Part shown: positions 4,876 to 35,150 of the stretch, in pieces
Position numbering within the stretch: the stretch's first letter is position 1
Layout: each line of letters begins with the position of its first letter
From: Escherichia phage PhaxI
DNA: 64,000 nucleotides
Reading direction: 5' to 3' (one strand)
Sequence record: JN673056
The notes under the pieces: generated by a model
The model's input: only the letters and a program-made list of their open reading frames with translations
Databases searched by the model: none
What the model was told of the DNA's origin: nothing
Made by a program: the position numbers and the translations under genes

Positions 4876-4886
4876 CGTGATAATCC

Positions 4887-5414: not shown

Positions 5415-5456
5415 GTATAAGTATCCCAAACTGGTTTTATCGATGAGGAACGAATC

Positions 5457-6224
5457 ATGTCAGAACGCGCATATCGTTTCAGTCTGACCGCCCCAGAAAT
5501 TGAGCGTTTGCTCTTGTCTATAAATGATTCCATACAAAAGCTGGACATCATTTATGACTACACGGCGGGTGGGACTGAAGGTCAAGTCGCAGCTGCGTCA
5601 GCTGTCAAAAACATGTGGCTAAAACTTAATGAGATGGTCACAGGTGAAGGTCTTAAAGACGCAATCAATGCAGCTAACGACAGCAACGTATTCACCGATT
5701 ATTATAAGTCTATTTTAGATCGCGAAACTTGGAAATTTATTGGTTCTCCGGCAGATTTATTAGCAAGGGACGATATAGACACTTCCAATTTTGAAGGCGG
5801 TGAAGTAATCCTCCTACAAAAGAACGCTTCGGGCAACCCAGAATTCCAATACTGGAAAAGAACTCCTGTGGCAGGAGGTGATCCAATATTTGGTTGGGAA
5901 TCTGTTTATGAAGGAAACTCCAACGACTCTTCTATTGATATTCCGGTTGTTGGGACCAGCATACTGAAGACAATCCCAAAAGCATTGTTTCATATGGTCG
6001 AATTCCGAGTACACGCTCGAGAGTCTACCCTCGGTCATTGGCAGGACACTGATGGCAAAATCGGTTATCGTGGTGAAGATCTGATTTATAGCCTGTATAA
6101 TCATGTTCAAACCAAACCGATCGCAAATATATCTTTCAGCCAAGATGTGGACAATATGATTATCACGATAACGACACTTGAACCAAATATCAAGTGCCAT
6201 TTATCGTTTATTGCGGGTTATTAA
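5457..6224 (+). CDS. hypothetical protein (255 aa), plus-strand
   Basis: ATG 5457 preceded by GAGGAA; convergent with flanking minus-strand genes; no motif recognised. Confidence 0.45.
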   Translation: MSERAYRFSLTAPEIERLLLSINDSIQKLDIIYDYTAGGTEGQVAAASAVKNMWLKLNEMVTGEGLKDAINAANDSNVFTDYYKSILDRETWKFIGSPADLLARDDIDTSNFEGGEVILLQKNASGNPEFQYWKRTPVAGGDPIFGWESVYEGNSNDSSIDIPVVGTSILKTIPKALFHMVEFRVHARESTLGHWQDTDGKIGYRGEDLIYSLYNHVQTKPIANISFSQDVDNMIITITTLEPNIKCHLSFIAGY

Positions 6225-7927
6225 ACCTCAAACACTGCATCGGTGAACCAGGTTGGGAAGAATTCTGGGTTGCGCATCATAAGAGATTCAAAGGATGAAT
6301 CAATGATGTATGTCGCAGCCCAGTCATCAACACCCCTGACCGAACGCCCACACATTTGAACAATGCGCAGTACTGCATTGCGGAAATATGCCGACGGATC
6401 CACTGAATTGATATGTGCTATCAGTGGATCGCCCAGATAATCATAAGGGACTTTGATCAGTATTTGGAAACGGCTGTAATCCCCTTTGAAATCATAACCT
6501 TCTTCCATAGCCGGACTGGCAATGACGCATGGGGACTTTGTTCTAAAAGCATTTTCCATAATATCCATCAACGCCTTTCGGGTACGCGGAACATGGATAA
6601 AATTCTGATATTTGCTGAATTTTTGTATTGCCAAGGCGCGATCATAACTCACTGTATGGATAATGCCGGACTGACCTGGGTGGAACGCGATTATTTCATC
6701 AATATATTCCGTCAACCTTTTCATTTCATAGTCACCCATATTGTTAGTCATCTTCACTATGGGCATATAGTTGACTTTTCTGTTTTCAATCGGGATAGGG
6801 TTGCCGATCTGAATGGAATGATAATCCCCCTGTCGAATACCCAATGAACGAGCATACAGATCGTGCTGACATATGAACGTGGATATCGCTTTTCGGAATA
6901 ACCCGAATTCGCTTACATCAGAAGGCATTACAGGTTTAAACCGGATAAAATCCTCCCCCTTTTCTTGCACAATAAATGTACTTGCTTGGGTTTGTGACAT
7001 AATACCGCAATAATCACTCAAGTTATGCAAGACATCTATAATGTCGGCGAGTTTCATCACTTGGCTTTCACTCAAGCGATCATCTTCGACCAATTCTTCA
7101 AGAACTTCCAACAAATTTTCTACTTTGAGATGGAGGGCTTCAAACATTGAATGCAGTTCACCAGACAAAGAATATAACTTGCCCAGGACATAGTCCTTGG
7201 TGCGTTCTACGATATCACCAATGGTAGAGACGATCTCCTTGCCCTCAGGGATAGAACGCAGCCCCTCCACGGCCTTTGTATTGTATTCCATGATCGTGTG
7301 CTCTAGGAGCGTAGAGGGCATTTTATGGCACTCGTCAAGGATCAGCATATCGGAACGGTTTTCGGGCTTCATGCAGATGGTTGTACACATTTCGATCATC
7401 ATGGCAGCATTAGTACAACGCAATGATGAAATATCCGTCCACAAATTACGCGCCTGTACATAAGGACAGCGGCGTTTGCTACAATGCCCGTCACGGCATG
7501 CTATACGGCATTGGACAGCATTGTAATACACATCTGGATGTACGTGGCAACGATAGTTCTTCTTGCCTTTTAGGATGTCTATCGCCACCGCCTTTTCAGC
7601 AGCATACTGATCTTGCAGACCTTTGGTCGGGGTGCTGATAGAAGTGCGAAATTGCCCATAAGGATCAGCCTGTAAAACTAGATGGCGAATCACTTTATGA
7701 ATGGTAGTGCCAATCAAAGATTTACCGACACCTGTCGGAGCTTCAATGATGACATGTTTAACCTTTTTGTTGATAAGCGCATCTATGGCTTCGACGATGC
7801 ATTCCATCTGGCCTGGGTTCGCTTTGTCATATGGGAATTCATCTTTGGTAAGGCGTTGTATTTCTTCCACAGGAACCTTACGGCCTATGGCGTCAATCGC
7901 CTTTCGGTGTTGATTAAATGCTGTCAC
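6221..7927 (-). CDS. SF2 DNA helicase, Rad3/XPD/DinG-like with Fe-S cysteine cluster
   Basis: Walker A APTGVGKS, DECH box (ILDECHK), cysteine-rich insert CHVHPDVYYNAVQCRIACRDGHCSKRRC typical of 4Fe-4S helicases; GTG start with strong SD AAAGGAGG. Confidence 0.65.
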   Translation of the reverse strand: MTAFNQHRKAIDAIGRKVPVEEIQRLTKDEFPYDKANPGQMECIVEAIDALINKKVKHVIIEAPTGVGKSLIGTTIHKVIRHLVLQADPYGQFRTSISTPTKGLQDQYAAEKAVAIDILKGKKNYRCHVHPDVYYNAVQCRIACRDGHCSKRRCPYVQARNLWTDISSLRCTNAAMMIEMCTTICMKPENRSDMLILDECHKMPSTLLEHTIMEYNTKAVEGLRSIPEGKEIVSTIGDIVERTKDYVLGKLYSLSGELHSMFEALHLKVENLLEVLEELVEDDRLSESQVMKLADIIDVLHNLSDYCGIMSQTQASTFIVQEKGEDFIRFKPVMPSDVSEFGLFRKAISTFICQHDLYARSLGIRQGDYHSIQIGNPIPIENRKVNYMPIVKMTNNMGDYEMKRLTEYIDEIIAFHPGQSGIIHTVSYDRALAIQKFSKYQNFIHVPRTRKALMDIMENAFRTKSPCVIASPAMEEGYDFKGDYSRFQILIKVPYDYLGDPLIAHINSVDPSAYFRNAVLRIVQMCGRSVRGVDDWAATYIIDSSFESLMMRNPEFFPTWFTDAVFEV

Positions 7928-7976
7928 GTTGTTCCTCCTTTGGATTCTGTTATAGTTTACCCGAATCCCAACAACG

Positions 7977-8010
7977 AAAAAGCCGAGGCATTAACCTCGG
8001 CTTCTCCTTT
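7977..8010. terminator. bidirectional rho-independent terminator hairpin (GCCGAGG-CATTAA-CCTCGGC)
   Basis: 7-bp GC-rich stem flanked by A-run upstream and T-rich run downstream on plus strand; lies between HU gene end and helicase gene start. Confidence 0.5.
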
Positions 8011-8062
8011 TAGCCTTGCGCCGCTGCACTGCAGACATGCGCTGGGCCGACGCCTGGTGTGA

Positions 8063-8341
8063 TTACTGGCCGTTGGCAGCAGCTTTCAGACCTTCACCGA
8101 CTTTGAATTTAACTACATTTTTCGCTTCGATCTGGATCTGTTGTCCGTTCAGCGGGTTGCGGCCAGTGCGCGCTTCCTGATGTTTAACTTCGAACGCGCC
8201 GAAGCCTACGAATTGGACAGATTGGCCAGCCGCGACTGCAGTTTTCACGCCATTGATAAAAGATGCAACGATTTTCTCAGCTTCGCCTTTGGTCATACCC
8301 TGGGTTTGAGCGATGTGAGCGATAAAATCAGTACGGTTCAT
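8063..8341 (-). CDS. HU/IHF-family DNA-binding protein
   Basis: MNRTDFIAHIAQ..GMTKGEAEKIVASF..GFGAFEVKHQEARTGRNPLNGQQIQIEAKNVVKFKVG is a canonical HU fold sequence; start set to ATG 8339-8341 with GGAG SD (track start 8377 is upstream). Confidence 0.85.
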   Translation of the reverse strand: MNRTDFIAHIAQTQGMTKGEAEKIVASFINGVKTAVAAGQSVQFVGFGAFEVKHQEARTGRNPLNGQQIQIEAKNVVKFKVGEGLKAAANGQ

Positions 8342-8428
8342 TCGGATTACTCCAGTTGGTTGTTTACGATGTTTCACTACAAGAGGACTACAGCTTACCT
8401 AACAAATATTATTGAATAAAGCGTTTAT

Positions 8429-9217
8429 TTACCGGGCATTTAGCATGTTACTTGAGCCTGAACCATCAACAGTCAGAGTACATTTCCCGGTGTTTGGGCA
8501 AGATTGCAACACCATGTTATATTCGTGGTGTAAATATTCAGGTGTCAGAGATGTCGTCAGTTTCTGATTCGCCCTGGCTTCTTGATCTGGAATTTCAACG
8601 TTCTTTCTTGCTGTATCCAAACGTTTGTCGGCCAGGACATTATCGCGGATAGATTGCTCAATCGAAGGATCTGTCAGCGCCTTTTTCACCAACACACGTG
8701 TGATTGTGAACATGCCAGGCGCAGCAGTTTCCAATTGCTGCTGGGTGCGTTCCTTGATCATCTTTTCTAACTCAGCCCGTTGGGTGTGAATTGTCATAGA
8801 ATCCAAAGAGGAAACGGCGTCCATCGTTGAGGATGCTGCGGCGGTTTTAACCAGGTTGAATCCCACCGCTATCGTGCCGTCACCGAGTTCAGCGCTCTGA
8901 CCTGCAAATTTGGTATGGAACCAAGGAACCTTCGCGACGTTCGGTGTGTAATAAACGTCCACATCCAGATCTTCCAAGGTCAGGTTGTCTTTGGCCTTTG
9001 GCGTCATTTTGGTCAGACTCACAACGGCTTCTTTGGTCGTGTAAACATCCACGCTTGAAACAAAGCTGGTGTAGATCCCCGCTGTTACAGGGTTCATGTC
9101 TACTTCACCCCATTGGGTGTGAACGCCGACATTACCTTCATCGATAACGCCACCACAACCAGAAAGTAGACTTGCAGCCAGAACCATAATTGCACCAAAC
9201 ACCAATTTCTTGAACAT
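8429..9217 (-). CDS. SPFH (band-7/stomatin-prohibitin-like) domain lipoprotein
   Basis: Signal peptide plus lipobox MMFKKLVFGAIMVLAASLLSGC; SPFH-like N-terminal motif VIDEGNVGVHTQWGEV and later AKDNLTLEDLDVDVYYTP resembling the TKDN..v.vd..v.yr block; start overlaps stop of upstream membrane protein gene. Confidence 0.5.
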   Translation of the reverse strand: MFKKLVFGAIMVLAASLLSGCGGVIDEGNVGVHTQWGEVDMNPVTAGIYTSFVSSVDVYTTKEAVVSLTKMTPKAKDNLTLEDLDVDVYYTPNVAKVPWFHTKFAGQSAELGDGTIAVGFNLVKTAAASSTMDAVSSLDSMTIHTQRAELEKMIKERTQQQLETAAPGMFTITRVLVKKALTDPSIEQSIRDNVLADKRLDTARKNVEIPDQEARANQKLTTSLTPEYLHHEYNMVLQSCPNTGKCTLTVDGSGSSNMLNAR

Positions 9218-9435
9218 CAATGTACCCCTTCAAAAATGTAGATATATGCACCCAATGTGAGTGCGGTTATTGTAACCGAAGAAATCAGCAGCAGGAAAGT
9301 TACCCTCACCCGTTTACGCCAACGTTTACTTCGGTAGATTTTAGTCTCTTTCAAGTATTTGAAAAAGAAAAATAAAATGAATGTTGAAATTACGAATATG
9401 AACAGATAACGGATTAACCCGATCATATTTCCCAC
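9217..9435 (-). CDS. small two-helix membrane protein (72 aa)
   Basis: Two hydrophobic segments (LIRYLFIFVISTFILFFFF and FLLLISSVTITALTLGAYIYIF) separated by basic loop KRWRKRVR; translationally coupled to the SPFH lipoprotein gene. Confidence 0.45.
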   Translation of the reverse strand: MGNMIGLIRYLFIFVISTFILFFFFKYLKETKIYRSKRWRKRVRVTFLLLISSVTITALTLGAYIYIFEGVH

Positions 9436-13441: not shown

Positions 13442-13510
13442 GATATAGTTCCTTCATTTCAAATGGGCGGGGCAAAGATACCCCGCCGTGGGTTTATAGG
13501 GTAACAAGTG
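13425..13510 (-). repeat. terminator-RBS-start cassette, copy A (hairpin GGCGGGG-N8-CCCCGCC then CATTTGAAATGAAGGAA..ATGACAGATCAA)
   Basis: About 75 percent identical over about 70 bp to 13985-14070, including the first four codons (MTDQ) of the downstream gene. Confidence 0.6.
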
Positions 13511-14000
13511 ATACGGTAAAAACCATCGTCCCATCTGTTGTCATTTTTCTTGAAACTGGGAAGACGCGAGGCTGACAGAATATCCATTCTTTCTCCATGG
13601 ACGCCAAGTCCAGCATATCCATTTCTGATTCATCGCCTTTGTTCACAAATTTTTCTAGAGAACCAAAGACATTAAGCCCCTCTGGGAGTCCGTTTCGATG
13701 TTTATAACAAATGCGGGCAACAGCTTTGGTTCCATACGATTTAGAAAATTGTTTGGCCACATGCTTCAGTTCGCTGAAACTAAGACAAGAATCCCATGTC
13801 TGAAACATGTCTCCTCGTTCAAACATCATCTCCAAACGCGCAACGTCCTCTTTAGGCAACCCGCGATAAAGTGTGGTCATCTGCGGTTCGCGTAATTCTT
13901 GCACCAGACCACGGATGGCAGGGGAAACAGTGCCAGGGCGCATGATGTGGGACTTATCATGGACGAGGTAAAATAAATCTTGAATTTGTTGATCGGTCAT
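13494..14000 (-). CDS. hypothetical protein (168 aa) starting MTDQ
   Basis: Preceded by copy B of the hairpin-RBS cassette; no motif recognised. Confidence 0.45.
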   Translation of the reverse strand: MTDQQIQDLFYLVHDKSHIMRPGTVSPAIRGLVQELREPQMTTLYRGLPKEDVARLEMMFERGDMFQTWDSCLSFSELKHVAKQFSKSYGTKAVARICYKHRNGLPEGLNVFGSLEKFVNKGDESEMDMLDLASMEKEWIFCQPRVFPVSRKMTTDGTMVFTVSLVTL

Positions 14001-14412: not shown

Positions 14413-14745
14413 TTACTTGCGCAGGGCAACCACGTATTCGGCAAGTTCACCCATGGTCGGGTCGTCGCCTTTACCGCCCAGCCAGCCATCAGAGATCTCG
14501 ACATTGAACTCTTCTTCTAGTTCCATGACGATTTCGATGGCATCAAGATCGTCGCCGCCGAGGTCTTTCTTGGTGCGGAGGCCAGCCAGTTTATCCAGGG
14601 CGTCATTCATAATCACTTCCGCGTCGACGATGCCTTTGATGCTGCTCTTGTCTTCGTCACTGACTTCCAGGTTCAGATTGTCAGTGGCGTACTGAGCCAG
14701 GTGACGCATTACTTCAACATAAGTTGGTTTGTTTGACATAAGCAT
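14413..14745 (-). CDS. acyl-carrier-protein-like protein lacking the phosphopantetheine-attachment serine
   Basis: KDLGGDDLDAIEIVMELEEEFNVEISD aligns with E. coli ACP [27 protein letters not shown], but codons GAC GAT (DD) replace the DS of the DSL motif; checked on the DNA. Confidence 0.6.
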   Translation of the reverse strand: MLMSNKPTYVEVMRHLAQYATDNLNLEVSDEDKSSIKGIVDAEVIMNDALDKLAGLRTKKDLGGDDLDAIEIVMELEEEFNVEISDGWLGGKGDDPTMGELAEYVVALRK

Positions 14746-14782: not shown

Positions 14783-17035
14783 TTAGATTTTGACTTCTTT
14801 TTCAGCCAGTTCGGCAGTGACGGTGTATTTCACCCCATCAACGTCCACATCCATAGTGGATTCTTCCAAATCCAGGTCGGTAAACCAACCATGGCCTGCA
14901 ACAATCCCATAAACTACCTTGGACAGCGTTTTGTTCAGAGATCGAACTTCGTTGATAGCTGCTTTTGCTGCATCACCAATCCAACTTTCGATCAGCTTTT
15001 TCTGAGTCTCTTCCGGTACGCTGGTGATCATCGGCGATTTAACAAACGCATTGTATTCGGCCAGGGCATTAGCGATCAGCTGATCAGCGACATTCAGTTT
15101 TTTACCGTCCGTCTGTTTTTTGATAACAGACGCGATGCTCGGCAGTGAAGATGCGCCTTTGATTTTCACATTCAATTCACGACTCATATAGACATCGGTT
15201 GATTCTACAGAAGAAGTCTTCGGTGAAAATCCATAGTCGCGAATGCCGTTTGCTGACAGGAAATCAGCCGCTTCTTTGCCATATTTTGAAGCCAGACCCG
15301 TAGCGTTGCCTTTTCCAACCAGTTCATCACGGTAGAATTTCAGAACTTTCTGTTTTGCCTTCAATGCTTCACGGCGCACATTGTCTGCAAAGAATTCAGC
15401 AGCACTGATATTCTTTGTCATGGCGCGGTTAACCATTGGGACACTTTCCAGATTTACAATGAAGACTTCCGGCCCACCAAACACATGAACACCCATGGCA
15501 GTCAAATCCTGTGCCACCTTAGCCCGAACAATCGGAGAATCTGCAGTGATAGGCATTGTTTTCAGGTTGATGATACCATCCTTGACAATGGTGTAATTGC
15601 GATAACGCCATGTATCCAGCTCTTCAGGAAGTTCATATTTCTTCTGTACAAACTCGGGCACAACAACCGTCCCGTGTTGAACTGTCTGCACACTGATGTT
15701 AGGACGTTCTGAATTATAGACCAAATTGCTGATCGGGACAATCCCTTTATCATCTGCTGGATTGAATTCCGGCGTCCAATCTTCGTGCTCGGCCAGTTTG
15801 AGCGCCAGGGCTTTACGCTCTTCTTTAGAAGTCGCATTCGCAATCTCTTCGGCCAACTTGTCTTCGGTGTCGTCAACTTTTTGTATAGTACCGCGCCCAA
15901 TGCTCTTGTAAGAGAATAGCGGATGCTTGGTGACGATAGAGACATCTGCTTCAGCCAAATACGTCAGAACATCAACAATGGTGGTGGCGTCTTCAGCCGG
16001 AACCATATTATAATCGATGCCATCAACTCCTCGCAGAGATTCGTCTACGATAGCCTGAGTCAGATCGACTTTGATGTTGGAGTAATCCTGCTTGGTGAAA
16101 CAGTTGCTGTATTGTTTGATGAAGCGGACGTCACCCGTTTTCTTCAGCGCAGCCCAAACCAAATCTGCGTCCATGGTATACACGCCGTAAAATGCCAGCA
16201 CGTATGCCGCTTGGATGTCTGCCAGATTATCCAGCTGGTCGATCATGTTGGGGTTTACAACCCACAGCTGAGAAACGCTTTCAGGGATGCTGACGTGGCC
16301 AATAGGGTGCTCTTCATCAGGATGCACAGCTAAAACAGTCGCCACGCCATTTTCAACATAAATGGCATGGGTGTAAACCAGGGGAACATCGACCACCACT
16401 TTCGGTGAAGAAGTTTTTAGCACGTTTTCCAATTCGGTCTGATATTCATTCTGGCCTTCGGCGAATACGTGGGTCGCACCAGAACGTTCTGCCATTAGCG
16501 CCAGCAGTTCGCGATTACAATACCAACCGTATTCGATGAAGGTAATGTTATCAAACGCTTTGGGCAGTACTTCAGCGGCATCCAGGATTTCATTAGAGCG
16601 CCAGCAGTTGTCATATCCGTCGGTCATGAACGCCAGGTTATTGACATAACCAGGTTTGTTCAGGCTCATCGCGGTTTCAGCAGCCAACTTCAGAGGTTCT
16701 ACAAATCCCGTACAACCTGACGGTTGCAGGAAGCGGTCAATCAGTTTATTGATTTCACTGAGATCGGTCGCGCTATTGATCTGACGGCCAGCGAATACCG
16801 TACCGAAATCACCACGGGATGAAAAGTAAAGAATGCTGACGGTATCTTCTGGTTTAACCAGAGACGGGAGATTTTCCTTCAGATGCTTACGGACTTCTGG
16901 AAGTGAAAGATACATGGACCGGGAGATATCCACAACGATTACATGGTTAGACGGTGCGACGGTCGCAACCGCATTCTTAAATGTTAATGATTCAATCATC
17001 GTTATTACCTTCTTTGGTGGTTTGAGCGGCTTCAC
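14783..17035 (-). CDS. von Willebrand factor A (vWA) domain protein (750 aa)
   Basis: MIDAS motif DxSxS (VVVDISRSMY) in N-terminal domain followed by a long C-terminal region of unknown fold. Confidence 0.5.
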   Translation of the reverse strand: MKPLKPPKKVITMIESLTFKNAVATVAPSNHVIVVDISRSMYLSLPEVRKHLKENLPSLVKPEDTVSILYFSSRGDFGTVFAGRQINSATDLSEINKLIDRFLQPSGCTGFVEPLKLAAETAMSLNKPGYVNNLAFMTDGYDNCWRSNEILDAAEVLPKAFDNITFIEYGWYCNRELLALMAERSGATHVFAEGQNEYQTELENVLKTSSPKVVVDVPLVYTHAIYVENGVATVLAVHPDEEHPIGHVSIPESVSQLWVVNPNMIDQLDNLADIQAAYVLAFYGVYTMDADLVWAALKKTGDVRFIKQYSNCFTKQDYSNIKVDLTQAIVDESLRGVDGIDYNMVPAEDATTIVDVLTYLAEADVSIVTKHPLFSYKSIGRGTIQKVDDTEDKLAEEIANATSKEERKALALKLAEHEDWTPEFNPADDKGIVPISNLVYNSERPNISVQTVQHGTVVVPEFVQKKYELPEELDTWRYRNYTIVKDGIINLKTMPITADSPIVRAKVAQDLTAMGVHVFGGPEVFIVNLESVPMVNRAMTKNISAAEFFADNVRREALKAKQKVLKFYRDELVGKGNATGLASKYGKEAADFLSANGIRDYGFSPKTSSVESTDVYMSRELNVKIKGASSLPSIASVIKKQTDGKKLNVADQLIANALAEYNAFVKSPMITSVPEETQKKLIESWIGDAAKAAINEVRSLNKTLSKVVYGIVAGHGWFTDLDLEESTMDVDVDGVKYTVTAELAEKEVKI

Positions 17036-18246: not shown

Positions 18247-18645
18247 CTATAGTTGGTTACACACAGATATTACTTTACGGCACGTGTCGATATCGAACAA
18301 GCCGATATGGCAATCGCGCTTCTTGATCCCCAGATTATGAGCCAGCCAGTTGTAAGCATCACTCCTGCTCCTCTGCCCACTTTTCCAGATAGGGTCAAAC
18401 GACCTATGAGCTTCCTGCTTAGCAGCACGGAGAGCGGCATTCGCCATCCTTCCCATAGGGGTCTTTCCATCACCATGTTTATGGCAACCGACTCGGGCGT
18501 CACATGGAGTGCACACCCAGAACTTCAGATTGCGGAGTTCAGGGCGGTGGGGGTATACAGCATCACCACTGACGTATTTGGCAGGAAGGCCGCAATAATC
18601 ACAGATGACAGGTTTCATATTCTTTGTCCAAAAGAAACCCCGCAC
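18247..18645 (-). CDS. cysteine-rich zinc-finger-like protein
   Basis: CDYC...CTPCDARVGCHKH cysteine/histidine clusters. Confidence 0.4.
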   Translation of the reverse strand: MRGFFWTKNMKPVICDYCGLPAKYVSGDAVYPHRPELRNLKFWVCTPCDARVGCHKHGDGKTPMGRMANAALRAAKQEAHRSFDPIWKSGQRSRSDAYNWLAHNLGIKKRDCHIGLFDIDTCRKVISVCNQL

Positions 18646-18656
18646 ACGGCGGGGTT
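18636..18656 (-). terminator. rho-independent terminator (AACCCCGC-CGTGTG-CGGGGTT + TTTCTTTT on minus strand)
   Basis: GC stem plus T-run immediately downstream of stop of gene 18678-19049. Confidence 0.6.
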
Positions 18657-18677: not shown

Positions 18678-19049
18678 TTATTTCAGGAGTTTTTCCAGTT
18701 CTTCAACAGAGAGACCTTCCAGTTCCTGCTGTTTCTTACGCTGGATCAGTTCCATGATCGCCTGGTTATTCGCTTTGCGTTCGGCGGCGGTTGCGCTTTC
18801 GTCACGTTCTTTCAATTTGACACCGATGATCGCTTTCACGATATCGAAACGCAGTTGTAACTGAGAGTCGACTGCGCTTTTCACGCCGATGAAATCTTCT
18901 TCATCGCTGGCGGCTTCCTTCACCTGACGGCTGAGGTCTTTCGCCAGTTCGTTTAGGGCATTCAGGTTCAGATCCCAAACCTGCTCAACAGATAGCAGAC
19001 CTTTGTTAGAGTTGAAACGCAGTTTTAAACGGGTTGCTTGATCAAACAT
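18678..19049 (-). CDS. hypothetical protein (123 aa)
   Basis: ORF followed by clear terminator. Confidence 0.45.
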   Translation of the reverse strand: MFDQATRLKLRFNSNKGLLSVEQVWDLNLNALNELAKDLSRQVKEAASDEEDFIGVKSAVDSQLQLRFDIVKAIIGVKLKERDESATAAERKANNQAIMELIQRKKQQELEGLSVEELEKLLK

Positions 19050-19086: not shown

Positions 19087-21105
19087 TTAGAAAATGACTT
19101 TTACAGTACGGTTAAACGCGCCGGACACTTTGACGAACACGTGGTTGCGTTGCGTCGTCGAGAATCCCAGACCGGACAGTTGGTTTTCATTCGGCTGGAC
19201 TTTCATTTTACTACCCAACATTTCAAAAACCTTACGATGTTTATCCAGTTCCGGCTTCAGATATTCGTTGTAGAAACCACGAGTACCTTCAGGATTAGCA
19301 CAGCCTTCCAGGATGAAGAACACGTGCTTGTTGCCTGTCTGCTCGCCATCCCAATGGTTTGGTGAGTTCAGGACCAGCTGTACTTTCTGGAAGGTCGCAG
19401 TCTTGATACCCCAAACTTCTTTAGACTTATCAACATTAGCCAGTTCGGACTTAATGCCAACAACTTGTTTGTCTTTAACAGTCAAGATGACTGCGGTGAT
19501 ACGTCCCTGATCTTTCAGGCCAGGATGGCTGAAACGATGCGTTGCGCCTTTGTATTCTACTTCGACTTCAAACCCTTCGTCGATTTTTTCACGTTGATTG
19601 TAGTTGTGGATTTCGAAACGGTATTCACCATCGCGCAGCTTGCTTTCATCTGTAAAGATGATATTTTCCACCGGAGCGCGGTTTGGATCAATACCATCCA
19701 TACCGTTCATATCGATATCCAGATGGGCACCTGTCATAGAGCGGCGATCGCGGAAGTAAACGTGCTCCATGTTGTTGAACATATGCAGATCGAGGTCGTC
19801 GTTATTGTGCCACGCCAAGGAAACGCGCAGATACCCGTCAACTTTACCGCCAGCAGCCTTTACACGTTCTTTAATGGAATCGGTCACTTCACCGTTGTAA
19901 GACCAGGAGAACCCGTTGTTCCACTTGAACAGGTTAGGCGCATCTGGGTTCGCCGGAGCAACCAGGGACATCAGGTTGCTAGTATGAGAATTCTCTACAA
20001 GCACTTCCATTGAATGCGCTTTTGGCAGAACATTGCTCAGGAAATCATCAACGCTGATCTCTTCAACTTTTTCCAGGGACTTGGTCGGAGTTTTCACTTC
20101 GGCGGCCAGCTGTGCAAACGGATCCATCGCTTTCTGAGCAGCCAGATCTGCGAACAGAACGTTGTTGATTGTCAGATCATCGTAAACCGCATAACGACGC
20201 GCCAGTGAGTCTTCCAAACCCAGAGCAATAACTTCTTTCTGAGCGTTTTCGATCATGGATTTTGAAACCAGCGCTGTCGGACGTTTGTAGTTCGCCGGAG
20301 CAACTTTGGATTCAAACGATTTAACAGCCTTTTCCAGTTCCACGCCTTCACTGATATCTGTCAGCAGAGTGCCGATAACTGTGTTGCGGATGCCGTGTGG
20401 AACATGATTGTTTGAACGGTATCCAGTATGCCATGCCCAAAGAGAACGGGCTGATTCGGGGACTTGTTCATATGCCTTTTTGGTTTCAACAAATCCCTTC
20501 ACTGCTGCTTTGTGTTCTGCGCCGCGATACAGAGAATTCTGGTCAATCAGTTCCAGAACGATTTCAGCTGATTCCAGAGTAATTTCACGCAGACCGCGTT
20601 CAAACAATTCAATAGCCTGGCGGATTTCACCTTTTTTCGAAGCGATTGCGTCCGGACGCAGAACATAGCTACCAAGTAATTGGGTATGGAAATGATTGTA
20701 AGTACGGATTTTGCCATCTTCACCAGATTCGTGATTGTGAGACAGGCCGACTTTGGCAGAATCGTTAAAATAAACATCGACGATTGCGTGTTGTTTGACA
20801 TACGCGGAAAGAGCCGCAGCCACCACGTCATATTCATTACCCAGATCAATGTTGTCCCAGATAGAAATTACGTTCAGTTCTGAATCGATGGTGACAACAC
20901 CGCCGATGTTACGGATGAATTGTTTACAGCAGGTGCAATCGTGTTCAGTACGTTCGCGGTACAGCGGGTTAGTACCAGCAGGGAAAGATGCCAGATACAG
21001 ATCCCAAAGAGCATCTTTATCGATATTGGTCATGAACAGACCAGTTGCGGACATCGCCAGCACGTTGTTATTAACTGCCGTTGCGAAGGGTTTGAATTCT
21101 GCCAT
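19087..21105 (-). CDS. large hypothetical protein (672 aa)
   Basis: Long uninterrupted ORF; no Walker or polymerase motifs found by eye. Confidence 0.5.
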   Translation of the reverse strand: MAEFKPFATAVNNNVLAMSATGLFMTNIDKDALWDLYLASFPAGTNPLYRERTEHDCTCCKQFIRNIGGVVTIDSELNVISIWDNIDLGNEYDVVAAALSAYVKQHAIVDVYFNDSAKVGLSHNHESGEDGKIRTYNHFHTQLLGSYVLRPDAIASKKGEIRQAIELFERGLREITLESAEIVLELIDQNSLYRGAEHKAAVKGFVETKKAYEQVPESARSLWAWHTGYRSNNHVPHGIRNTVIGTLLTDISEGVELEKAVKSFESKVAPANYKRPTALVSKSMIENAQKEVIALGLEDSLARRYAVYDDLTINNVLFADLAAQKAMDPFAQLAAEVKTPTKSLEKVEEISVDDFLSNVLPKAHSMEVLVENSHTSNLMSLVAPANPDAPNLFKWNNGFSWSYNGEVTDSIKERVKAAGGKVDGYLRVSLAWHNNDDLDLHMFNNMEHVYFRDRRSMTGAHLDIDMNGMDGIDPNRAPVENIIFTDESKLRDGEYRFEIHNYNQREKIDEGFEVEVEYKGATHRFSHPGLKDQGRITAVILTVKDKQVVGIKSELANVDKSKEVWGIKTATFQKVQLVLNSPNHWDGEQTGNKHVFFILEGCANPEGTRGFYNEYLKPELDKHRKVFEMLGSKMKVQPNENQLSGLGFSTTQRNHVFVKVSGAFNRTVKVIF

Positions 21106-21201
21106 GGTATAGTCTTCCTGTTTCAGTTCAAAGTGAGCGCCCTTATCGGGGCGCGTCGTTAAAGTGAGGTCAATATACGCTGAAAAGATTTATTGAAAAG
21201 T

Positions 21202-21609
21202 TTAAACGGGAATCATGTTTACTCGAATACTTCTGAACTGTTTCCCGTCATAACTGGTGTAACCAACAACCGTAACTGATCTTGTTCCCTTTGGATAACC
21301 CTTTGGAGTACTCACAACGCGCACAGGGCGCTTGCTTTCTTTATCGTATTTCGAAATCAATTTCAAAAGATGTTTATCGATCTGGCTTAAACTATCACCA
21401 TACACGGTATATTGATATTGCTCGCAATTACCCAACAAAATGATAAATTTATAAATTTTGTCGACCAAAGATCGACATTTTGGATCATCATAATGATGCC
21501 GACAGACTTGACATTCATATTTCCCAGTATTCATGTTGAACAATTTTGTCGCCCGACTTGAACACGCTGGGCATACTTTCCATGAACGATGATGTTTTAC
21601 GGGTTTCAT
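21202..21609 (-). CDS. zinc-ribbon protein (135 aa)
   Basis: CPAC...CQVC pairs near N-terminus. Confidence 0.4.
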   Translation of the reverse strand: MKPVKHHRSWKVCPACSSRATKLFNMNTGKYECQVCRHHYDDPKCRSLVDKIYKFIILLGNCEQYQYTVYGDSLSQIDKHLLKLISKYDKESKRPVRVVSTPKGYPKGTRSVTVVGYTSYDGKQFRSIRVNMIPV

Positions 21610-22832
21610 TTTTTCATCTTCTCTAACAGATTAATAGAACGAACGGGAGTCTTCTGTAATGGCTGATTAACTTCACCACCATTATACCCCACCTTTCCTC
21701 GAGGTTTCTCCCCGCGCATCACCGCCTCAACGCAGCGGGTATATTTCTGAAGTTCACAGAACATGTTCTCCAACTGCATAACATTCATGCAACGGTCTTC
21801 CGGTTCTTCTGCCGACCAAAATTCATTACGTTTATACCCGTACTGAGCGAACAATTGATCTTGATGATCACGAACCCAGAATATGCATTCTTCATGCGTC
21901 ATGCCGTCCTTGTCCAAAAATAACAGATCGATACCAGCACGGCAACCTGGACCAGCGATAGTGAAGTGGTTTTCACTGAATGGATATTCATCGATGTATG
22001 TAAAATCAACCCAAATCTGGTATGCCAAGAATGGTCCAAGCCCCTCAATGTCGTCATACATCGCCTGGTAAACAGAGTCGGGACGGCTAAATTCCCTGAG
22101 GCGATCAAAGTAATGAGGGTGTTTGTTGACGAATGCCTTCAAAGAGCGGATGACTCGCATCGGCATGTATGGTTCCCAGCCTTCTATTTTGTATTCACCA
22201 GGATTATCTTCGGCCAGCTTCTTGGCAACCTTGTAATCCATTTCATCTATAACACCGCCAACCCGATGGACTTTTACCTTCATGCCGCCAAAGCGTTGCT
22301 CCTTGTGGTTGACAACTAGTTCAGGGAAAGCCAGGCATTGTTTCAGACCGCCTGTATTAAACGCATTGGTGAAAACTTTGCCACCTTTAGATTCGAATTC
22401 CTGAAGAACATCTCGACACCATTCAAGATTTATGTTTCCGAATTCTTCGATCGTCCATGGACCACCCAAAGCCTGTATAGGTTCCCACATGTTGTACATG
22501 CGGAACAATACACAGTTGAACATTTTGTCAGATAGCGTGAGATCCTGATCGAGGATGATATTATTGATCAAATTTCGAGACTGCCTATCGTGCTCTCTCC
22601 GGACGTTACAGAACTTGACCTGCCGTAGTATGGGATTATCCGTCCAAGGAGCAGGAAGACGCTGGACGTCCTTTCTCACGTGGATCTTATAACGCTCGCT
22701 CATCCATTCGTATGCGAGTTGTTTATGGAATGGGCTTAACATGGGATGTGCAGATTTAATTTTAACTTCCCGAACACCGCAATAAGGAATGTCACACGGT
22801 TTATCTTTCATGGTATCCTCTCTAGAATACAA
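21606..22832 (-). CDS. hypothetical protein (408 aa)
   Basis: Long ORF overlapping downstream gene start; no motif recognised. Confidence 0.45.
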   Translation of the reverse strand: MYSREDTMKDKPCDIPYCGVREVKIKSAHPMLSPFHKQLAYEWMSERYKIHVRKDVQRLPAPWTDNPILRQVKFCNVRREHDRQSRNLINNIILDQDLTLSDKMFNCVLFRMYNMWEPIQALGGPWTIEEFGNINLEWCRDVLQEFESKGGKVFTNAFNTGGLKQCLAFPELVVNHKEQRFGGMKVKVHRVGGVIDEMDYKVAKKLAEDNPGEYKIEGWEPYMPMRVIRSLKAFVNKHPHYFDRLREFSRPDSVYQAMYDDIEGLGPFLAYQIWVDFTYIDEYPFSENHFTIAGPGCRAGIDLLFLDKDGMTHEECIFWVRDHQDQLFAQYGYKRNEFWSAEEPEDRCMNVMQLENMFCELQKYTRCVEAVMRGEKPRGKVGYNGGEVNQPLQKTPVRSINLLEKMKK

Positions 22833-22833
22833 A

Positions 22834-22860
22834 AAACAGAGGCCATTATAGCCTCTGTTG
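22834..22860. terminator. bidirectional terminator hairpin (ACAGAGGC-CATTATA-GCCTCTGT)
   Basis: 8-bp stem, A6 upstream and T-rich downstream on plus strand (T6 on minus); between genes 22882-23838 and 21606-22832. Confidence 0.6.
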
Positions 22861-22881
22861 TTTAGTGAATAACGGATTATA

Positions 22882-23838
22882 TTAATCGAAGCGAGAGAGG
22901 TGTGTCACAGTGTTTTGAACAGGTGCGCACGCGTATACACGAACATTAGCACCCCACACCCCACACAGCTTAGGCATATTGGTATCGTTAATGATATACG
23001 CTGGCACATAACTTTCAATTTGGCCGTTAACATCTACGGGTCGAGAAGATTTTTCAACTGCCATAGAAAGAATTATTTCCAACGTTTTTGGAGATACCAA
23101 ACGCCACGCCGTCAAATCATCAACAAATACCTGACCTTCTTCAATTGCCATGCTGGCAACGATGTCATTGATCTGACGGGAAGGGGTATTCGTCAGCATA
23201 TCAGAGAAATCAGGCTCTTTGAACACAGCCATGTTTTTCAGGAATTTTCCTTTCGGATATTCTTTGCCATTCCACATCACAGTCTCATTCACTTTGATGC
23301 ATGCCTGAGGGAATTCACCTTCAACGCGTAACTGGCCAACTGGGAAACCGCGTGAATAATAATATTCCAGTGCCGGACCGACTTCATCTTCTGAGCGAAT
23401 AAATTTGCTCATGTTGGAGGCATAAACACGCTGCAAGCACTCATCGCCGTTGAAACCAGCAATGTGTGCCACGCCGTCATTGACTGTTGTGATGTCGCCC
23501 TGAGCGTCCAAAATCTGGCGCATAATGTCTTTGATGTCGACAACAGCAGGTTCTTTCAGGACTCGCGGAGATGCAGTGAACTCAATTTTCACCTCGTGGT
23601 CGAAATAAGCCGCTTCCAGTAATTCGCGGGTCTCTTCCAGAACCAGTTTGGCCTGATTGCGAATTTTACCGAAGTCAGGGGCTGTAATATCTCCAGCCGC
23701 ATTACCAAAAGCCAAATTCAGTCTCACGTTTTTATTAAATGTAGTTGTCATAATATAGCGACTCCAGTTATTCAATTTTTGCCCGACTTGGGCGAATGGT
23801 GTATTTTGGAACCAGTTTCCACTCTGAAACTTGGTCAT
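22882..23838 (-). CDS. hypothetical protein (318 aa)
   Basis: Long ORF; no motif recognised. Confidence 0.45.
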   Translation of the reverse strand: MTKFQSGNWFQNTPFAQVGQKLNNWSRYIMTTTFNKNVRLNLAFGNAAGDITAPDFGKIRNQAKLVLEETRELLEAAYFDHEVKIEFTASPRVLKEPAVVDIKDIMRQILDAQGDITTVNDGVAHIAGFNGDECLQRVYASNMSKFIRSEDEVGPALEYYYSRGFPVGQLRVEGEFPQACIKVNETVMWNGKEYPKGKFLKNMAVFKEPDFSDMLTNTPSRQINDIVASMAIEEGQVFVDDLTAWRLVSPKTLEIILSMAVEKSSRPVDVNGQIESYVPAYIINDTNMPKLCGVWGANVRVYACAPVQNTVTHLSRFD

Positions 23839-24232
23839 GTTTTACAACTTTGATCCGAGACATGTCAGCCACTTCGGTTATTTGTTCCGGATGCAAGATC
23901 TTAACCATATTCCATTGCTCCAGAAGCCGTATAATCCGATTCATACGCAGGACATCTTCACGCGTAAAGCCGTTATAGTGCCCATCTAGCATGAACAAAT
24001 GCTTGAAATGCACGATGTGATATCTGCCAAATTTATGCAGGATATGGCACGTTTGATACAAGGTGTTAGGCTCTTGACGAGTGTTAACCCCTATCCGACT
24101 CAGCGTTTCCTTGATACCCAGGAAAATCCCTGGTTTGTCTTGGTTCAATTGAACTTCAACCATACAGTCAACAATGCTGGCCTCATCGTTGACAGCTGAA
24201 AGTTTTAAGATGTCCAGCGTATTACGCGCCAT
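23768..24232 (-). CDS. regA: RegA-like translational repressor
   Basis: GIKETLSRIGVNTRQEPNTLYQTCHILHKFGRYHIVHFKHLFMLDG and EWKLVPKYTI match remembered T4 RegA (VKETLTRMGI..LYQSCHILQKKGLYYIVHFKEMLRMDG, EWKLVPKYTI); same position after gp62 as in T4; possible internal start at MVEVQ (24163). Confidence 0.75.
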   Translation of the reverse strand: MARNTLDILKLSAVNDEASIVDCMVEVQLNQDKPGIFLGIKETLSRIGVNTRQEPNTLYQTCHILHKFGRYHIVHFKHLFMLDGHYNGFTREDVLRMNRIIRLLEQWNMVKILHPEQITEVADMSRIKVVKHDQVSEWKLVPKYTIRPSRAKIE

Positions 24233-24261: not shown

Positions 24262-24684
24262 TTACTTAGCCTTGCGCGGTTTGGCTTTTTCGTTGCTGTT
24301 GGAACGTTCGACCTTCGCCTTGATTTCAGCCAGGACTTCTTTCGGCAGGAATCGAACATATTCTGAAGCCTTTTCAGGACTGATGTAATAATACTCAGAA
24401 ATCAATTTCACATCAGGATCCATAGCTCCCTTCTTAGACCACTTGCCATAGCGACGTTTTGCCGGAATGCTATGAAACGCCAGGTTCCATTGCATCCAAG
24501 GAGTAATGGCATGAAAGCGGTTCATTTGTTCAGCAACCACAAGCGTGTCTTTACTCTGGGCAAGGCCGCGCCGAGTCATGAAAGGATCAAAAGCCTTTCT
24601 GATTTCGGGGTCTTCGGTCATCAACAGATTCTCTTTGGTGCTATTCAACGCACCGAGGTAATCGAACAGTGACGGAGCGGCCAT
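24262..24684 (-). CDS. clamp-loader small subunit (T4 gp62-like)
   Basis: Motif AKRRYGKWSKK matches T4 gp62 RGKRYGKWAK; gene order 45-44-62-regA conserved. Confidence 0.6.
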   Translation of the reverse strand: MAAPSLFDYLGALNSTKENLLMTEDPEIRKAFDPFMTRRGLAQSKDTLVVAEQMNRFHAITPWMQWNLAFHSIPAKRRYGKWSKKGAMDPDVKLISEYYYISPEKASEYVRFLPKEVLAEIKAKVERSNSNEKAKPRKAK

Positions 24685-24688
24685 AATA

Positions 24689-25678
24689 TTACTTCCATTT
24701 GATGTTGAGCATGACGTTAGTCAAGAAGTAAACGCCGTGTAACCAGACGTCGCCGACGGAACGATGTTCAATCTGAGACTGACCACAGACGCATACCAGA
24801 TCAGGGATTGACTCGTTTTGAATCAAAGGAGTCTTTTCCTTGTTCTGGGGAACGCAGAAATGGAAGAAACGGGAATAAAAATCTTCAGTGATGTAGTTTT
24901 GGTTGTCGGTCACCCACTGCTTCATCCCAGCCCAATCATTGGTTTTTAGGAAATCCACCAACGCTTGGAATTCCCCTGCTTTAACCTGTGCCAGAGCGCG
25001 TTCATCGATTTTACCAAACGTGGTGGCATTATCCTGAAGAGTTCCCATAATTTTGCGATTATCTGGGAAATATGATTTCACAATGGAAGCAATTACACCA
25101 GCTTCATACGGAATGCCTTCCTCTGTCAGGATAGTTGCGCAACGACGCATGAATTGAAGTTTAACTTCATCTGCTTCCTTTTCAGACCAGATAAAATCAA
25201 TTTCACGACAGCGGGAACGCAGAGGTTCGTTAACGCGCTGTTTCGCATTAGTCGTCAGGATGAAGGAGCAGTTTTTGGAGACTTTCTCTACGATGCCTTT
25301 CAGGGATTCCTGCGCCGCCATGGAAAGTCGCTCAACTTCATCGAGGATAACGACTTTGCGGCCACCGAAAACACTGACGCCAGTTGCGTATTGAATAACA
25401 CGGTCACGGATGACATCAATGCTGTTATCCAGTGACGCATTGATCATCAACGGTTTGATACAACCGATTTCGTTGCAAACAGCCAGAGCAGAAGTAGTCT
25501 TGCCCGTACCAGGCTGAGGGGAATAGAACAGCATTGAGGGGATGTTTCCATTGCCTGATGTAACATAGCCATGGATTTTTGCACGGACGTCTGAAGGGAG
25601 GACGATCTCATCCAGATTGTCAGGGCGATATTTGTTTTCCCACGCGTATTGATCTGTGACGATAGTGATGTTAGACAT
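24689..25678 (-). CDS. clamp-loader ATPase subunit (T4 gp44-like, RFC family)
   Basis: AAA+ motifs: KYRP box (ENKYRPDNLDE), Walker A PQPGTGKTT, Walker B ILDEVE, sensor SRC (LRSRCREI). Confidence 0.85.
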   Translation of the reverse strand: MSNITIVTDQYAWENKYRPDNLDEIVLPSDVRAKIHGYVTSGNGNIPSMLFYSPQPGTGKTTSALAVCNEIGCIKPLMINASLDNSIDVIRDRVIQYATGVSVFGGRKVVILDEVERLSMAAQESLKGIVEKVSKNCSFILTTNAKQRVNEPLRSRCREIDFIWSEKEADEVKLQFMRRCATILTEEGIPYEAGVIASIVKSYFPDNRKIMGTLQDNATTFGKIDERALAQVKAGEFQALVDFLKTNDWAGMKQWVTDNQNYITEDFYSRFFHFCVPQNKEKTPLIQNESIPDLVCVCGQSQIEHRSVGDVWLHGVYFLTNVMLNIKWK

Positions 25679-25755: not shown

Positions 25756-26424
25756 TTAATCCAGCTGCATGCCGACGTAATAGTTGATGGTGCCGTCTGC
25801 GGATTGGAAGTTAACCAGTTGCATTTCGGCACAGGCGCGGATCACGTAGTTTCCTTCGATCATTTTCAGGTTGACCACATCAACAGGCATAGCAAAATCG
25901 CCCAGAGTTGTTTCGCCCAATTCAACAGTGTAATCGTTGGAATTATCGATAGTAGTGGTCGTGCCTACCAGACGAGTTTTACCGCCGCTGGCAACCAGAC
26001 GTACAGTTTTGTGGCCCAGAGTAGAACAGGCGCGGGTCAGCTCTTTCATTTTTTCAGGAGTGACCGTTGCTTCGAATTCTACAGACGGGAGATCGATGCT
26101 GTCTGCTGGAACGACCGTCAATTCTTTAGCGGAACGCCAGAATTGCAGTTGGGAGTTTTCACCTTTCAGCAAAATGTGGTCTTCTGACATTTCAATTTTA
26201 CCGCCTTTGAAACTCGGAAGACGCTGGATTGCCAGCAGTTTGGTGAGATCTAGAATCGGGAATTCGAACGGGAAGTCTTCGTCGATATCAGCGATAGCGA
26301 TAACTGTACTGGAATCGTTAACGGTGCGCAGCTTTTTACCAGGTGCCAGAACGATAGAGGGGCAGATGGTTTCAAAGTTAGCCAGCAGTTGTAAAGTGCG
26401 TTCGGAGAGAGTGATCTCTTGCAT
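25756..26424 (-). CDS. sliding clamp (T4 gp45-like)
   Basis: 222 aa, immediately upstream of clamp loader genes in T4 order; size and synteny; no catalytic motif expected. Confidence 0.6.
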   Translation of the reverse strand: MQEITLSERTLQLLANFETICPSIVLAPGKKLRTVNDSSTVIAIADIDEDFPFEFPILDLTKLLAIQRLPSFKGGKIEMSEDHILLKGENSQLQFWRSAKELTVVPADSIDLPSVEFEATVTPEKMKELTRACSTLGHKTVRLVASGGKTRLVGTTTTIDNSNDYTVELGETTLGDFAMPVDVVNLKMIEGNYVIRACAEMQLVNFQSADGTINYYVGMQLD

Positions 26425-34523: not shown

Positions 34524-34654
34524 CTCTTCGGGAGTTTTTGTTCTATTCTTATTGGTTGTATTGATTTTGTTTCTTAATTGTTGGTACGCTTCTGTTTGTT
34601 GGAAAGCCTTGACACCATCCCTTTGTGCTTCAGACCAAGTGGTTCCTGTTTTCC

Positions 34655-35053
34655 CTAATTTAATTCTTTCTCTTGTCTCCTTTGTCCTCTTTTTACCTTT
34701 GTTTGACGAAGAAATTTTCTGTCGTACCTTTTCAGAAGGAGTGCCGTATGTGCCCAGATGGACAGGCGTCCCATCTTTACGACAAAGGAAATTGATTCAA
34801 ACAACCCAGGAAACTTATGAGTCTTTGATATTAATAATCCTTCTACGCGTAGAGCATCTTCAGGAGTTTCACATACCATAACAATCTTGGTTTCAAAGAA
34901 TTCTAACCCATTTTCTTCTATCAAAGATTTAACTGGGAAGGAAGAAGTGAAATATGTTGCCCACAAATCATCAGGATGGCAATCTTTGGAATAACGACAT
35001 CCGTAATAGAAATGTCCTTGTTTAGATTTTATTCTGTACACATATGGGGTCAT
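34655..35053 (-). CDS. GIY-YIG-like nuclease domain protein (short, possible homing endonuclease remnant)
   Basis: N-terminus YVYRIKSKQGHFYYGCR fits the GIY-(x9-11)-YIG-x-R pattern, later conserved Glu (RVEGLL); only 132 aa, no DNA-binding domain. Confidence 0.35.
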   Translation of the reverse strand: MTPYVYRIKSKQGHFYYGCRYSKDCHPDDLWATYFTSSFPVKSLIEENGLEFFETKIVMVCETPEDALRVEGLLISKTHKFPGLFESISFVVKMGRLSIWAHTALLLKRYDRKFLRQTKVKRGQRRQEKELN

Positions 35054-35100
35054 AATGATCTCCTTTCTGAGTAATATAACCCCATATCTTAGAAAAGAAA

Positions 35101-35120
35101 ACCCCGCACATGGCGGGGTT
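35101..35120 (-). terminator. rho-independent terminator after major capsid gene (AAACCCCGCC-ATGT-GCGGGGTTTTCTTTTCT on minus strand)
   Basis: 7-bp GC stem and T-run immediately 3-prime of gp23 stop. Confidence 0.75.
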
Positions 35121-35150
35121 TGATTATAGCGTAAGTCTTTGTTTTAGCTA

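Follow-up and report, generated by a model that had tools for sequence, protein, structure and literature searches.

What has come to stand where phage T4 carries its DNA polymerase gene? On the T4 map, gene 43 comes after regA. We analysed a 64,000-nucleotide stretch of DNA from Escherichia phage PhaxI (sequence record JN673056), referred to below as the window, in which a first-pass annotation had placed three sizeable open reading frames (ORFs) of 318, 408 and 672 amino acids (aa) at this locus (positions 19087–23838) and had proposed that they serve nucleotide metabolism or DNA modification. We found that the 408-aa ORF encodes a counterpart of gp160 of phage ViI, which belongs to a published thymidine-hypermodification gene set, and that the first ORF, in a shorter form of 289 aa, most probably encodes a nucleoside triphosphate (NTP) pyrophosphohydrolase. 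The proposal was therefore borne out for these two proteins, but not for the 672-aa protein, a member of the DUF8224 family, which matched no enzyme family. We consider it probable that the interval consists of three independent units that happen to occupy the place of the T4 polymerase, and not of one system.

The region was 97.4% identical across 9.5 kb to the corresponding region of phage CBA120 (Kuttervirus, Ackermannviridae). On the minus strand the genes run in the order gp45 (25756–26424), gp44 (24689–25678), gp62 (24262–24684) and regA (23768–24232), followed in turn by ORFs of 318, 408, 135 and 672 aa. Since each of these four ORFs has many homologs, we count them as genuine conserved genes. 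The earlier remark that the 45-44-62-regA run is followed by no polymerase in the window was correct, and in CBA120 the polymerase (orf237) is encoded elsewhere, at ∼145 kb, beyond the portion of the genome that matches the window. The three sizeable ORFs also stood, all on the minus strand and with many homologs, except that the 318-aa reading proved too long. Two zinc-ribbon proteins had been counted in the interval, but only one lies inside 19087–23838; the second was probably a DUF3268 zinc-finger protein, detected with Pfam, at 18247–18645, outside the interval.

The 408-aa ORF (21606–22832, minus strand) had been described, with its neighbours, as having no recognisable motifs. Its product, however, matched the curated Pfam family PF18723 (HMUDK_hel) with a score of 285.4 bits (cutoff 25; E = 6.1e-85), across profile positions 5–278 of 281. 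HMUDK_hel denotes the "5-hmdU DNA kinase, helical domain", where 5-hmdU is 5-hydroxymethyldeoxyuridine; the family was formerly called aG/PT-PPlase clade 1, and the Pfam names have since changed. The protein was 80% identical to ViI orf00160 (Vi01_130c), which occupies the same place beside orf00161/regA, and 97% identical to CBA120 orf156, and had 911 homologs. It aligned to residues 313–598 of SP10 gp186, the C-terminal half of that protein, which themselves match PF18723. The P-loop signature GxxxxGK[ST] was absent from its sequence and no kinase model in Pfam matched it. It also gave no match at E ≤ 1 to the Pfam family of amino acid:DNA transferases (ADDT, PF18724), to which CBA120 orf248 scores 195 bits. 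By these comparisons the 408-aa protein is an ortholog of ViI gp160: a clade 1 protein that stands alone and is not a kinase or an ADDT. The ORF opens at a TTG, whereas its relatives open at the ATG at 22811, which gives 401 aa; this ATG is the probable start (coding 21606–22811), and the residue numbers used here count from it.

ViI gp160 is listed as "aG/PT-PPlase1" in Table 3 of Lee et al. (2018; PMC5889632). In the same work, mixed lysates containing gp67, gp160, gp226, gp243 and gp247 of ViI turned 5-hmdU DNA into DNA carrying 5-(2-aminoethoxy)methyldeoxyuridine (5-NeOmdU); in addition, the virion DNA of CBA120 was found to carry the same 301-Da nucleoside at ∼40% of thymidines (PMC5889632). 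The statement that no pathway enzyme could be recognised in the interval thus no longer applies. Of the families that the first-pass annotation named for checking, the aGPT-pyrophosphorylases were the ones recovered, through this clade 1 ortholog. No 5-hmdU DNA kinase model in Pfam matched any of the three proteins, and pyridoxal phosphate (PLP) enzymes and glycosyltransferases gave no match in Pfam or NCBIfam or at the level of fold. Polymerase, kinase, PLP-enzyme and glycosyltransferase identities were accordingly set aside, being unsupported by the Pfam and NCBIfam searches. Sequence and profile searches of the three proteins against PDB chains yielded nothing usable, and NCBIfam and PADLOC searches yielded nothing relevant. 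RefSeq names the gp160 ortholog a "hypothetical protein" in CBA120 and most relatives, although it is really part of a published gene set.

Clade 1 is linked to the thymidine-modification pathway in several other phages. By Pfam, SP10 gp186 combines an HMUD1 kinase (residues 35–193) with HMUDK_hel (residues 313–598), and it has been described as a kinase/PPlase1 fusion (Lee et al., 2018). In Pseudomonas phage Epa43, a kinase ORF (4411–4983) and an HMUDK_hel ORF (4980–5867; E = 1e-44) overlap by 4 nt, in a cluster with the order ADDT, flavin adenine dinucleotide (FAD) oxidoreductase, acetyltransferase, kinase, HMUDK_hel and a thymidylate synthase (TS)-like gene. Vibrio phage D504 and Pseudomonas phage Cygsa01 share the order HMUD2 kinase, ADDT, two small genes and HMUDK_hel, and the Cygsa01 cluster adjoins the clamp, clamp-loader and regA genes. 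In Kutterviruses the pathway is scattered: the HMUD1 kinase, TS-like hydroxymethylase, deoxynucleoside monophosphate kinase and dUTPase_2 enzyme are encoded at 34–37 kb, and the PLP enzyme, HMUD2 kinase and ADDT at 140–152 kb. The gp160 ortholog is the only one of these pathway genes inside the window; the deoxyuridine monophosphate hydroxymethylase, the 5-hmdU DNA kinases and the clade 2 transferase were all absent from its 64 kb. In CBA120 they are orf073 (hydroxymethylase), orf074 and orf243 (kinases) and orf248 (clade 2 transferase), as confirmed with Pfam, and the PLP enzyme of the pathway, a decarboxylase, is orf228, outside the window. CBA120 orf248, which matches PF18724, is the counterpart of the serine:DNA transferase ViI gp247. 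We conclude that the gp160 ortholog belongs to the 5-hmdU-based hypermodification system that makes 5-NeOmdU in ViI and CBA120.

Family alignments pointed to a candidate active site in the gp160 ortholog. The segment E348-N-M-F-C352-E353-L-Q-K356-Y357 (21741–21770, minus strand) contains the proposed catalytic Glu and Cys; E348, C352, E353, K356 and Y357 were invariant in an alignment of 35 sequences, and six members compared, those of SP10 (gp186C) and Epa43 among them, also kept the pattern E-x3-C-E-x2-K-Y, down to ∼23% identity. The Cys of a "GPGC" motif, in contrast, was not invariant in the family. ADDT proteins carry E-[ST]-x2-C-x2-K-K at a comparable place, and three elements, a helix-hairpin-helix (HhH)-like segment, a Gly-rich loop and E-x3-C, are collinear in the two clades (258, 287 and 348 here; 183, 217 and 282 in CBA120 orf248). 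A Cys and its neighbouring Glu are essential in the clade 2 proteins M6 gp51 and ViI gp247 (PMC8989533), E243 and C247 are among the mutated active-site residues of PaMx11 gp46 (PMC11472151), and clades 1 and 2 are treated as paralogs in the literature (PMC5889632, PMC8989533). Comparison of the HMUDK_hel and ADDT alignments with hhalign was not significant with either default or greedy settings (E = 0.2), and although the greedy alignment put the three motifs in register, it shared this lack of significance. CBA120 orf248 itself did not reach the solved ADDT structures by sequence. Because the profile comparison was not significant, it is a short motif, together with its spacing, that carries the suggested equivalence of the two active sites, and this must be counted against it.

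The gene next to regA encodes the second unit. The 318-aa reading (22882–23838, minus strand) runs 70 nt into regA, whose stop codon lies at 23768–23770. After this stop comes CTGGAGTCGCTATATT and then an ATG at 23751, preceded at ∼9 nt by a GGAG Shine-Dalgarno sequence. CBA120 and ViI annotate proteins of 289 and 288 aa, and the PHROG match begins at residue 30 of the 318-aa reading. Because the relatives are annotated from the ATG at 23751, we take the gene to be 22882–23751 (minus strand), encoding 289 aa; the 5′ extension (23752–23838, minus strand), which overlaps the 3′ end of regA, is probably untranslated in this gene. In its 289-aa form the protein matches that of Escherichia phage PhaxI at 100% identity, and it has 204 homologs. 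It matched phrog_2144, "MazG-like pyrophosphatase" (E = 5e-133), and phrog_671, "nucleotide pyrophosphohydrolase" (E = 2.5e-19).

More distant homologs helped to place this family. With its first 186 residues as the query, tblastn recovered standalone homologs 183–204 aa long in Schitoviridae (phiA41, 51% identity; P184, 47%) and a 248-aa homolog in a Samunavirus (FBPa45_0037; 32% identity, E = 2e-18). P184 gp093 matched Pfam PRA-PH at 27.5 bits (cutoff 21.3), while the Pseudomonas protein FBPa45_0037 scored 31.6 bits with PRA-PH and 22.0 bits, against a cutoff of 22, with MazG, and also matched MazG-like. The members from Ackermannviridae, Schitoviridae and Samunavirus all share E40, E43, D82 and D86 without exception. 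The all-alpha NTP pyrophosphohydrolase superfamily is marked by conserved acidic residues that bind metal from two helices, in E-x-x-E and E/D-x-x-x-D motifs. Since the intermediate homologs pass the Pfam cutoffs and share the invariant acidic residues, membership of the 289-aa protein in this (MazG/PRA-PH) superfamily is supported through them. Two results pull the other way: the protein itself gave no MazG, PRA-PH or dUTPase match in Pfam, NCBIfam or PDB, and its AlphaFold2 model was poor (mean pLDDT 49.5), with four helices predicted in residues 27–133. The predicted layout is an N-terminal helical catalytic part, a family-specific subdomain of ∼70 aa that extends to about residue 186, and a C-terminal domain of ∼100 aa found in Ackermannviridae only.

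The gene ends the gp45-gp44-gp62-regA run, and the metal-dependent pyrophosphohydrolase that it encodes would most likely reshape or clean the deoxynucleotide pool during replication; deoxythymidine and deoxyuridine triphosphates (dTTP and dUTP) are candidates only as its substrates. Kutterviruses encode three NTP-pyrophosphatase-like proteins, which in CBA120 are orf013 (7895–8473; no Pfam match), orf070 (34616–35161; dUTPase_2) and orf157, the 289-aa protein. Alignment of the MazG-like family with orf013 and orf070 by hhalign detected no relationship. Assignment of the 289-aa protein to dUTPase_2 was rejected, as it matched no such model and showed no similarity to orf070 or D504_0186.

The third unit begins with the 672-aa ORF (19087–21105, minus strand), which encodes a protein of several domains as judged from homolog annotation, phrog_1735 and an AlphaFold2 model (mean pLDDT 84.6). 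Full-length homologs with 49% to 97% identity all carry PF26675 (DUF8224), and membership was assigned via these homologs. The family is very large and uniform: one search hit >7,500 homolog clusters, and at 50% identity the family comprises 4,493 clusters, almost every one ∼670 aa long. Its alignment contains many invariant Arg, Asn, Tyr, His, Asp and Cys positions. No enzyme family was matched in Pfam, NCBIfam, PADLOC, sequence and profile searches of the PDB, or Foldseek, and the literature searched held no mention of "DUF8224". A comparison of the model with predicted viral structures returned significant matches to uncharacterised proteins only, including those of Cellulophaga phage phi4:1, jumbo phages and giant eukaryotic viruses (E = 1e-8 to 1e-6). 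The best Foldseek match in the PDB was the PLAT domain of a lipoxygenase (E = 0.017), which we judged to be a generic beta-sandwich match.

In the model, the only recognisable part is a TerD-like beta-sandwich at about residues 420–560 (19426–19848, minus strand). It contains the invariant residues D437-L-D439, D463, D465 and E480-N481, and probably binds Ca2+. This likeness is weakened by the profile comparisons, in that a PDB profile search with DUF8224 found no TerD chain, there was no TerD match in Pfam, and hhalign against TerZ/A/D/E/F aligned the families only weakly, though in the register to be expected (E = 0.011; probability 3.9%). In the ViI record, DUF8224 (7358–9377) is annotated as two overlapping coding sequences of 491 and 183 aa, and separate N- and C-terminal pieces occur elsewhere (PHROGs 23228, 25920 and 21434; A0A1I9S6F6/F7); these could be frameshifts, sequencing errors or real splits. 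DUF8224 is among the larger wholly uncharacterised virus families, and discovery of its function would bear on thousands of phages.

The DUF8224 gene is followed directly by a gene for a 123-aa helical protein (phrog_2018; 18678–19049, minus strand), and this in turn by a terminator-like hairpin with an 8-bp stem (6 G-C pairs) and a T run (18636–18656, minus strand; consensus match only). In all four of the distant contigs for which DNA was available, a homolog of the 123-aa protein (35–45% identity) is encoded directly downstream of DUF8224, and in a fifth contig a 130-aa gene takes its place. Because this partner is shared and no other window gene is found near DUF8224 in the four distant contigs, the two appear to form a module of DUF8224 and a ∼125-aa partner, found across many large phages, that moves independently of the thymidine genes. 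This conserved pair is previously undescribed. Modification genes were likewise absent near DUF8224 in the four distant phage contigs, which makes a role dedicated to thymidine hypermodification less likely, and the 672-aa protein is probably unrelated to DNA modification. A metal-responsive function in host takeover or stress is a guess that we offer with low confidence. At a distance of 2 kb from the TerD-like protein, the window (14783–17035) encodes a protein of 750 aa that carries a vWA domain at its N terminus (VWA_3, E = 1e-6; phrog_2426), and genuine ter operons pair TerD proteins with the vWA protein TerF. A Ter-like pairing was nevertheless rejected, since in the four distant contigs DUF8224 has no vWA gene close by.

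What, then, might the gp160 ortholog do? Going beyond the gene identities, family memberships, synteny and motif conservation observed here, we infer that clade 1 is a catalytic paralog using C6-thiolate/exocyclic-methylene chemistry. The protein would act on DNA after replication, on 5-hmdU that has been phosphorylated by the kinases (5-PmdU). The 5-PmdU base would be flipped out and Cys352 would attack C6, with Glu348 assisting. Departure of the phosphate would then leave an exocyclic C5 methylene, by chemistry as shown for clade 2, and something other than serine would serve as the acceptor that resolves this intermediate. A more specific possibility is that the gp160/HMUDK_hel clade restores ordinary thymidine from phosphorylated 5-hmdU in DNA that has just been replicated, the Cys-linked methylene being formed as in clade 2 and then reduced rather than given serine. 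How 5-hmdU becomes thymidine was stated to be unknown by Lee et al. (2018; PMC5889632), and the clade 2 protein M6 gp51, with 5-PmdU and borohydride, yielded thymidine (Lee et al., 2021; PMC8989533). This suggestion draws on the fusion or adjacency of clade 1 to a kinase in several phages and on the kept E-x3-C dyad. We think it unlikely, but if true it would explain why ∼60% of T positions escape hypermodification; clade 1, with the apparent catalytic Glu and Cys of characterised paralogs, is a testable candidate for the unexplained conversion.

The main rival to a catalytic role is that the gp160 ortholog is not an enzyme, but a DNA-binding or base-flipping helper of the 5-hmdU DNA kinases, whose choice of hmdU residues to be phosphorylated would then fix the ∼40% modification pattern. 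The fusion of HMUDK_hel to the kinase in SP10 gp186, the overlap of the two ORFs in Epa43 and the name chosen by the Pfam curators, that of a kinase domain ("kinase, helical domain"), all fit a helper. So does the work of Lee et al. (2021; PMC8989533) with purified proteins, in which kinases made 5-PmdU, gp247 transferred serine and gp226 decarboxylated the product; the ViI steps could be run with purified kinase, gp247 and gp226, without gp160, to which that paper refers a single time. The literature searched reports activity on 5-hmdU or 5-PmdU DNA for no HMUDK_hel protein, and these last two points speak against our catalytic proposal. A helper is harder to reconcile with the activity of the SP10 gp186 kinase domain alone, and of standalone kinases (PMC8989533), or with the distance of tens of kilobases between the Kuttervirus gp160 gene and either kinase gene. 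Nor would a helper be expected to keep an invariant E-x3-C-E-x2-K-Y down to ∼23% identity, mirroring the essential Glu and Cys of clade 2. On balance, a helper role is a possibility that we take seriously but doubt, and a catalytic clade 1 protein is the reading that we prefer.

Two further alternatives would tie the neighbours of gp160 to the same pathway and so bear on the independence of the three units. The 289-aa protein could be a phage dTTPase/dUTPase that removes dTTP in a pre-replicative step, allowing 5-hmdUTP to be incorporated. Phages with hmdU need to deplete dTTP (PMC8989533), gp18 of Acinetobacter phage SH-Ab 15599 is a demonstrated dTTPase/dUTPase linked to such a pathway (PMC13458397), the modification cluster of Vibrio phage D504 holds an NTP-pyrophosphatase gene, and the 289-aa gene adjoins gp160 within the replication module. 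However, dUTPase_2 is the family of both the D504 enzyme and CBA120 orf070, and no similarity to either was seen in the 289-aa protein. Since orf070 is a dUTPase_2 protein encoded beside the hydroxymethylase, as in D504, and by analogy with 15599 gp18, it is the more obvious dTTPase/dUTPase, and this also counts against such a substrate for the 289-aa protein. The same is true of the standalone relatives in Schitoviridae and Samunavirus phages, podophages and siphophages without known thymidine modification. The two genes are also parted by a terminator-like hairpin with an 11-bp stem and a T run (22835–22859, minus strand), which is a consensus match only, such sites being no more numerous in the region than in shuffled sequence. 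We regard this role as improbable. That the 672-aa DUF8224 protein serves the thymidine pathway as yet another DNA-modification or nucleotide-metabolism enzyme, so far unrecognised, is an idea that could appeal to its gene following gp160 and the zinc-ribbon gene with no predicted terminator between them, which is weak evidence, to the hairpins at 22859–22835 and 18656–18636 that bracket the four genes, and to the many invariant residues, which suggest a constrained active or binding site. It is very hard to sustain, however, for a family that outnumbers HMUDK_hel about fivefold in clusters and has structural relatives among giant eukaryotic viruses, which matches no enzyme family or fold and whose genes in the four distant contigs have no window gene nearby save the 123-aa partner. 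Three independent units thus remain our preferred account of the interval.

Between the gp160 and DUF8224 genes lies a 135-aa ORF (21202–21609, minus strand) with an N-terminal CxxC...CxxC zinc ribbon, identified from the ORF itself, weak Zn_ribbon matches in Pfam and phrog_16119. Its ATG overlaps the stop codon of the gp160 ortholog (ATGA). The gene is present in CBA120 (orf154) but not at this position in ViI, and looks like a lineage-specific insertion in CBA120-like phages. In small actinophages (Microbacterium phages, ∼40 kb), proteins align with gp160 only over its C-terminal third (residues ∼258–380), which holds the HhH-like, GPG and E-x3-C motifs, and may be a minimal version of the HMUDK_hel domain. 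In Salmonella phages Se-G and Se-F the matching region spans ∼12.3 kb, not 9.5 kb; a nicotinamide phosphoribosyltransferase and a ribose-phosphate pyrophosphokinase are among its annotated products and constitute an insertion for nicotinamide adenine dinucleotide (NAD) salvage that the window does not have. Directly downstream of the vWA gene, CBA120 orf142 and orf140 (window ∼14413–14745 and 13494–14000 by synteny) are annotated as an acyl carrier protein, which is unusual there, and an RNA polymerase ADP-ribosylase. The genes for the tail tube and the tail sheath are separated by one for a GIY-YIG homing endonuclease (window 40979–41437, by synteny with CBA120 orf195).

Compared with known systems, the three units stand at different distances from characterised proteins. 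The 672-aa protein resembles TerD (PF02342; PDB 2kxt, 2qz7) in structure only, with no Pfam or profile match; the TerD-like part makes up about one fifth of the protein, and its other domains match nothing. With MazG (PF03819), PRA-PH/HisE (PF01503) and MazG-like (PF12643) proteins, the 289-aa protein shares E39-E40-x-x-E43-x-x-E46 and D82-x-x-x-D86 on predicted helices, but it falls below the Pfam thresholds and has the additional subdomain and C-terminal domain described above. 15599 gp18, CBA120 orf070 and D504_0186 are likewise NTP pyrophosphatases, encoded by thymidine-hypermodifying phages, but they are dUTPase_2 proteins (PF08761), to which the 289-aa protein has no detectable similarity.

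The novelty of the 289-aa protein and of the gp160 ortholog is low, both being orthologs of published or annotated genes. The clade 2 ADDT proteins (ViI gp247, M6 gp51 and PaMx11 gp46, PDB 8Z2M/8Z2N) share gene clusters with clade 1, and their HhH-like segment, Gly-rich loop and E-x3-C-x3-K are collinear with those of the 408-aa protein at similar spacing. In the 408-aa protein, however, a Glu directly follows the Cys and a Lys-Tyr pair is present, both of which ADDT lacks, and ADDT has a transferase activity where none is known for clade 1. The closest counterpart is ViI gp160 itself, of which the protein described here is an 80% identical ortholog of similar length, in the same position and the same Pfam family, differing only in its neighbour, since the 135-aa zinc-ribbon gene follows it here and not in ViI.

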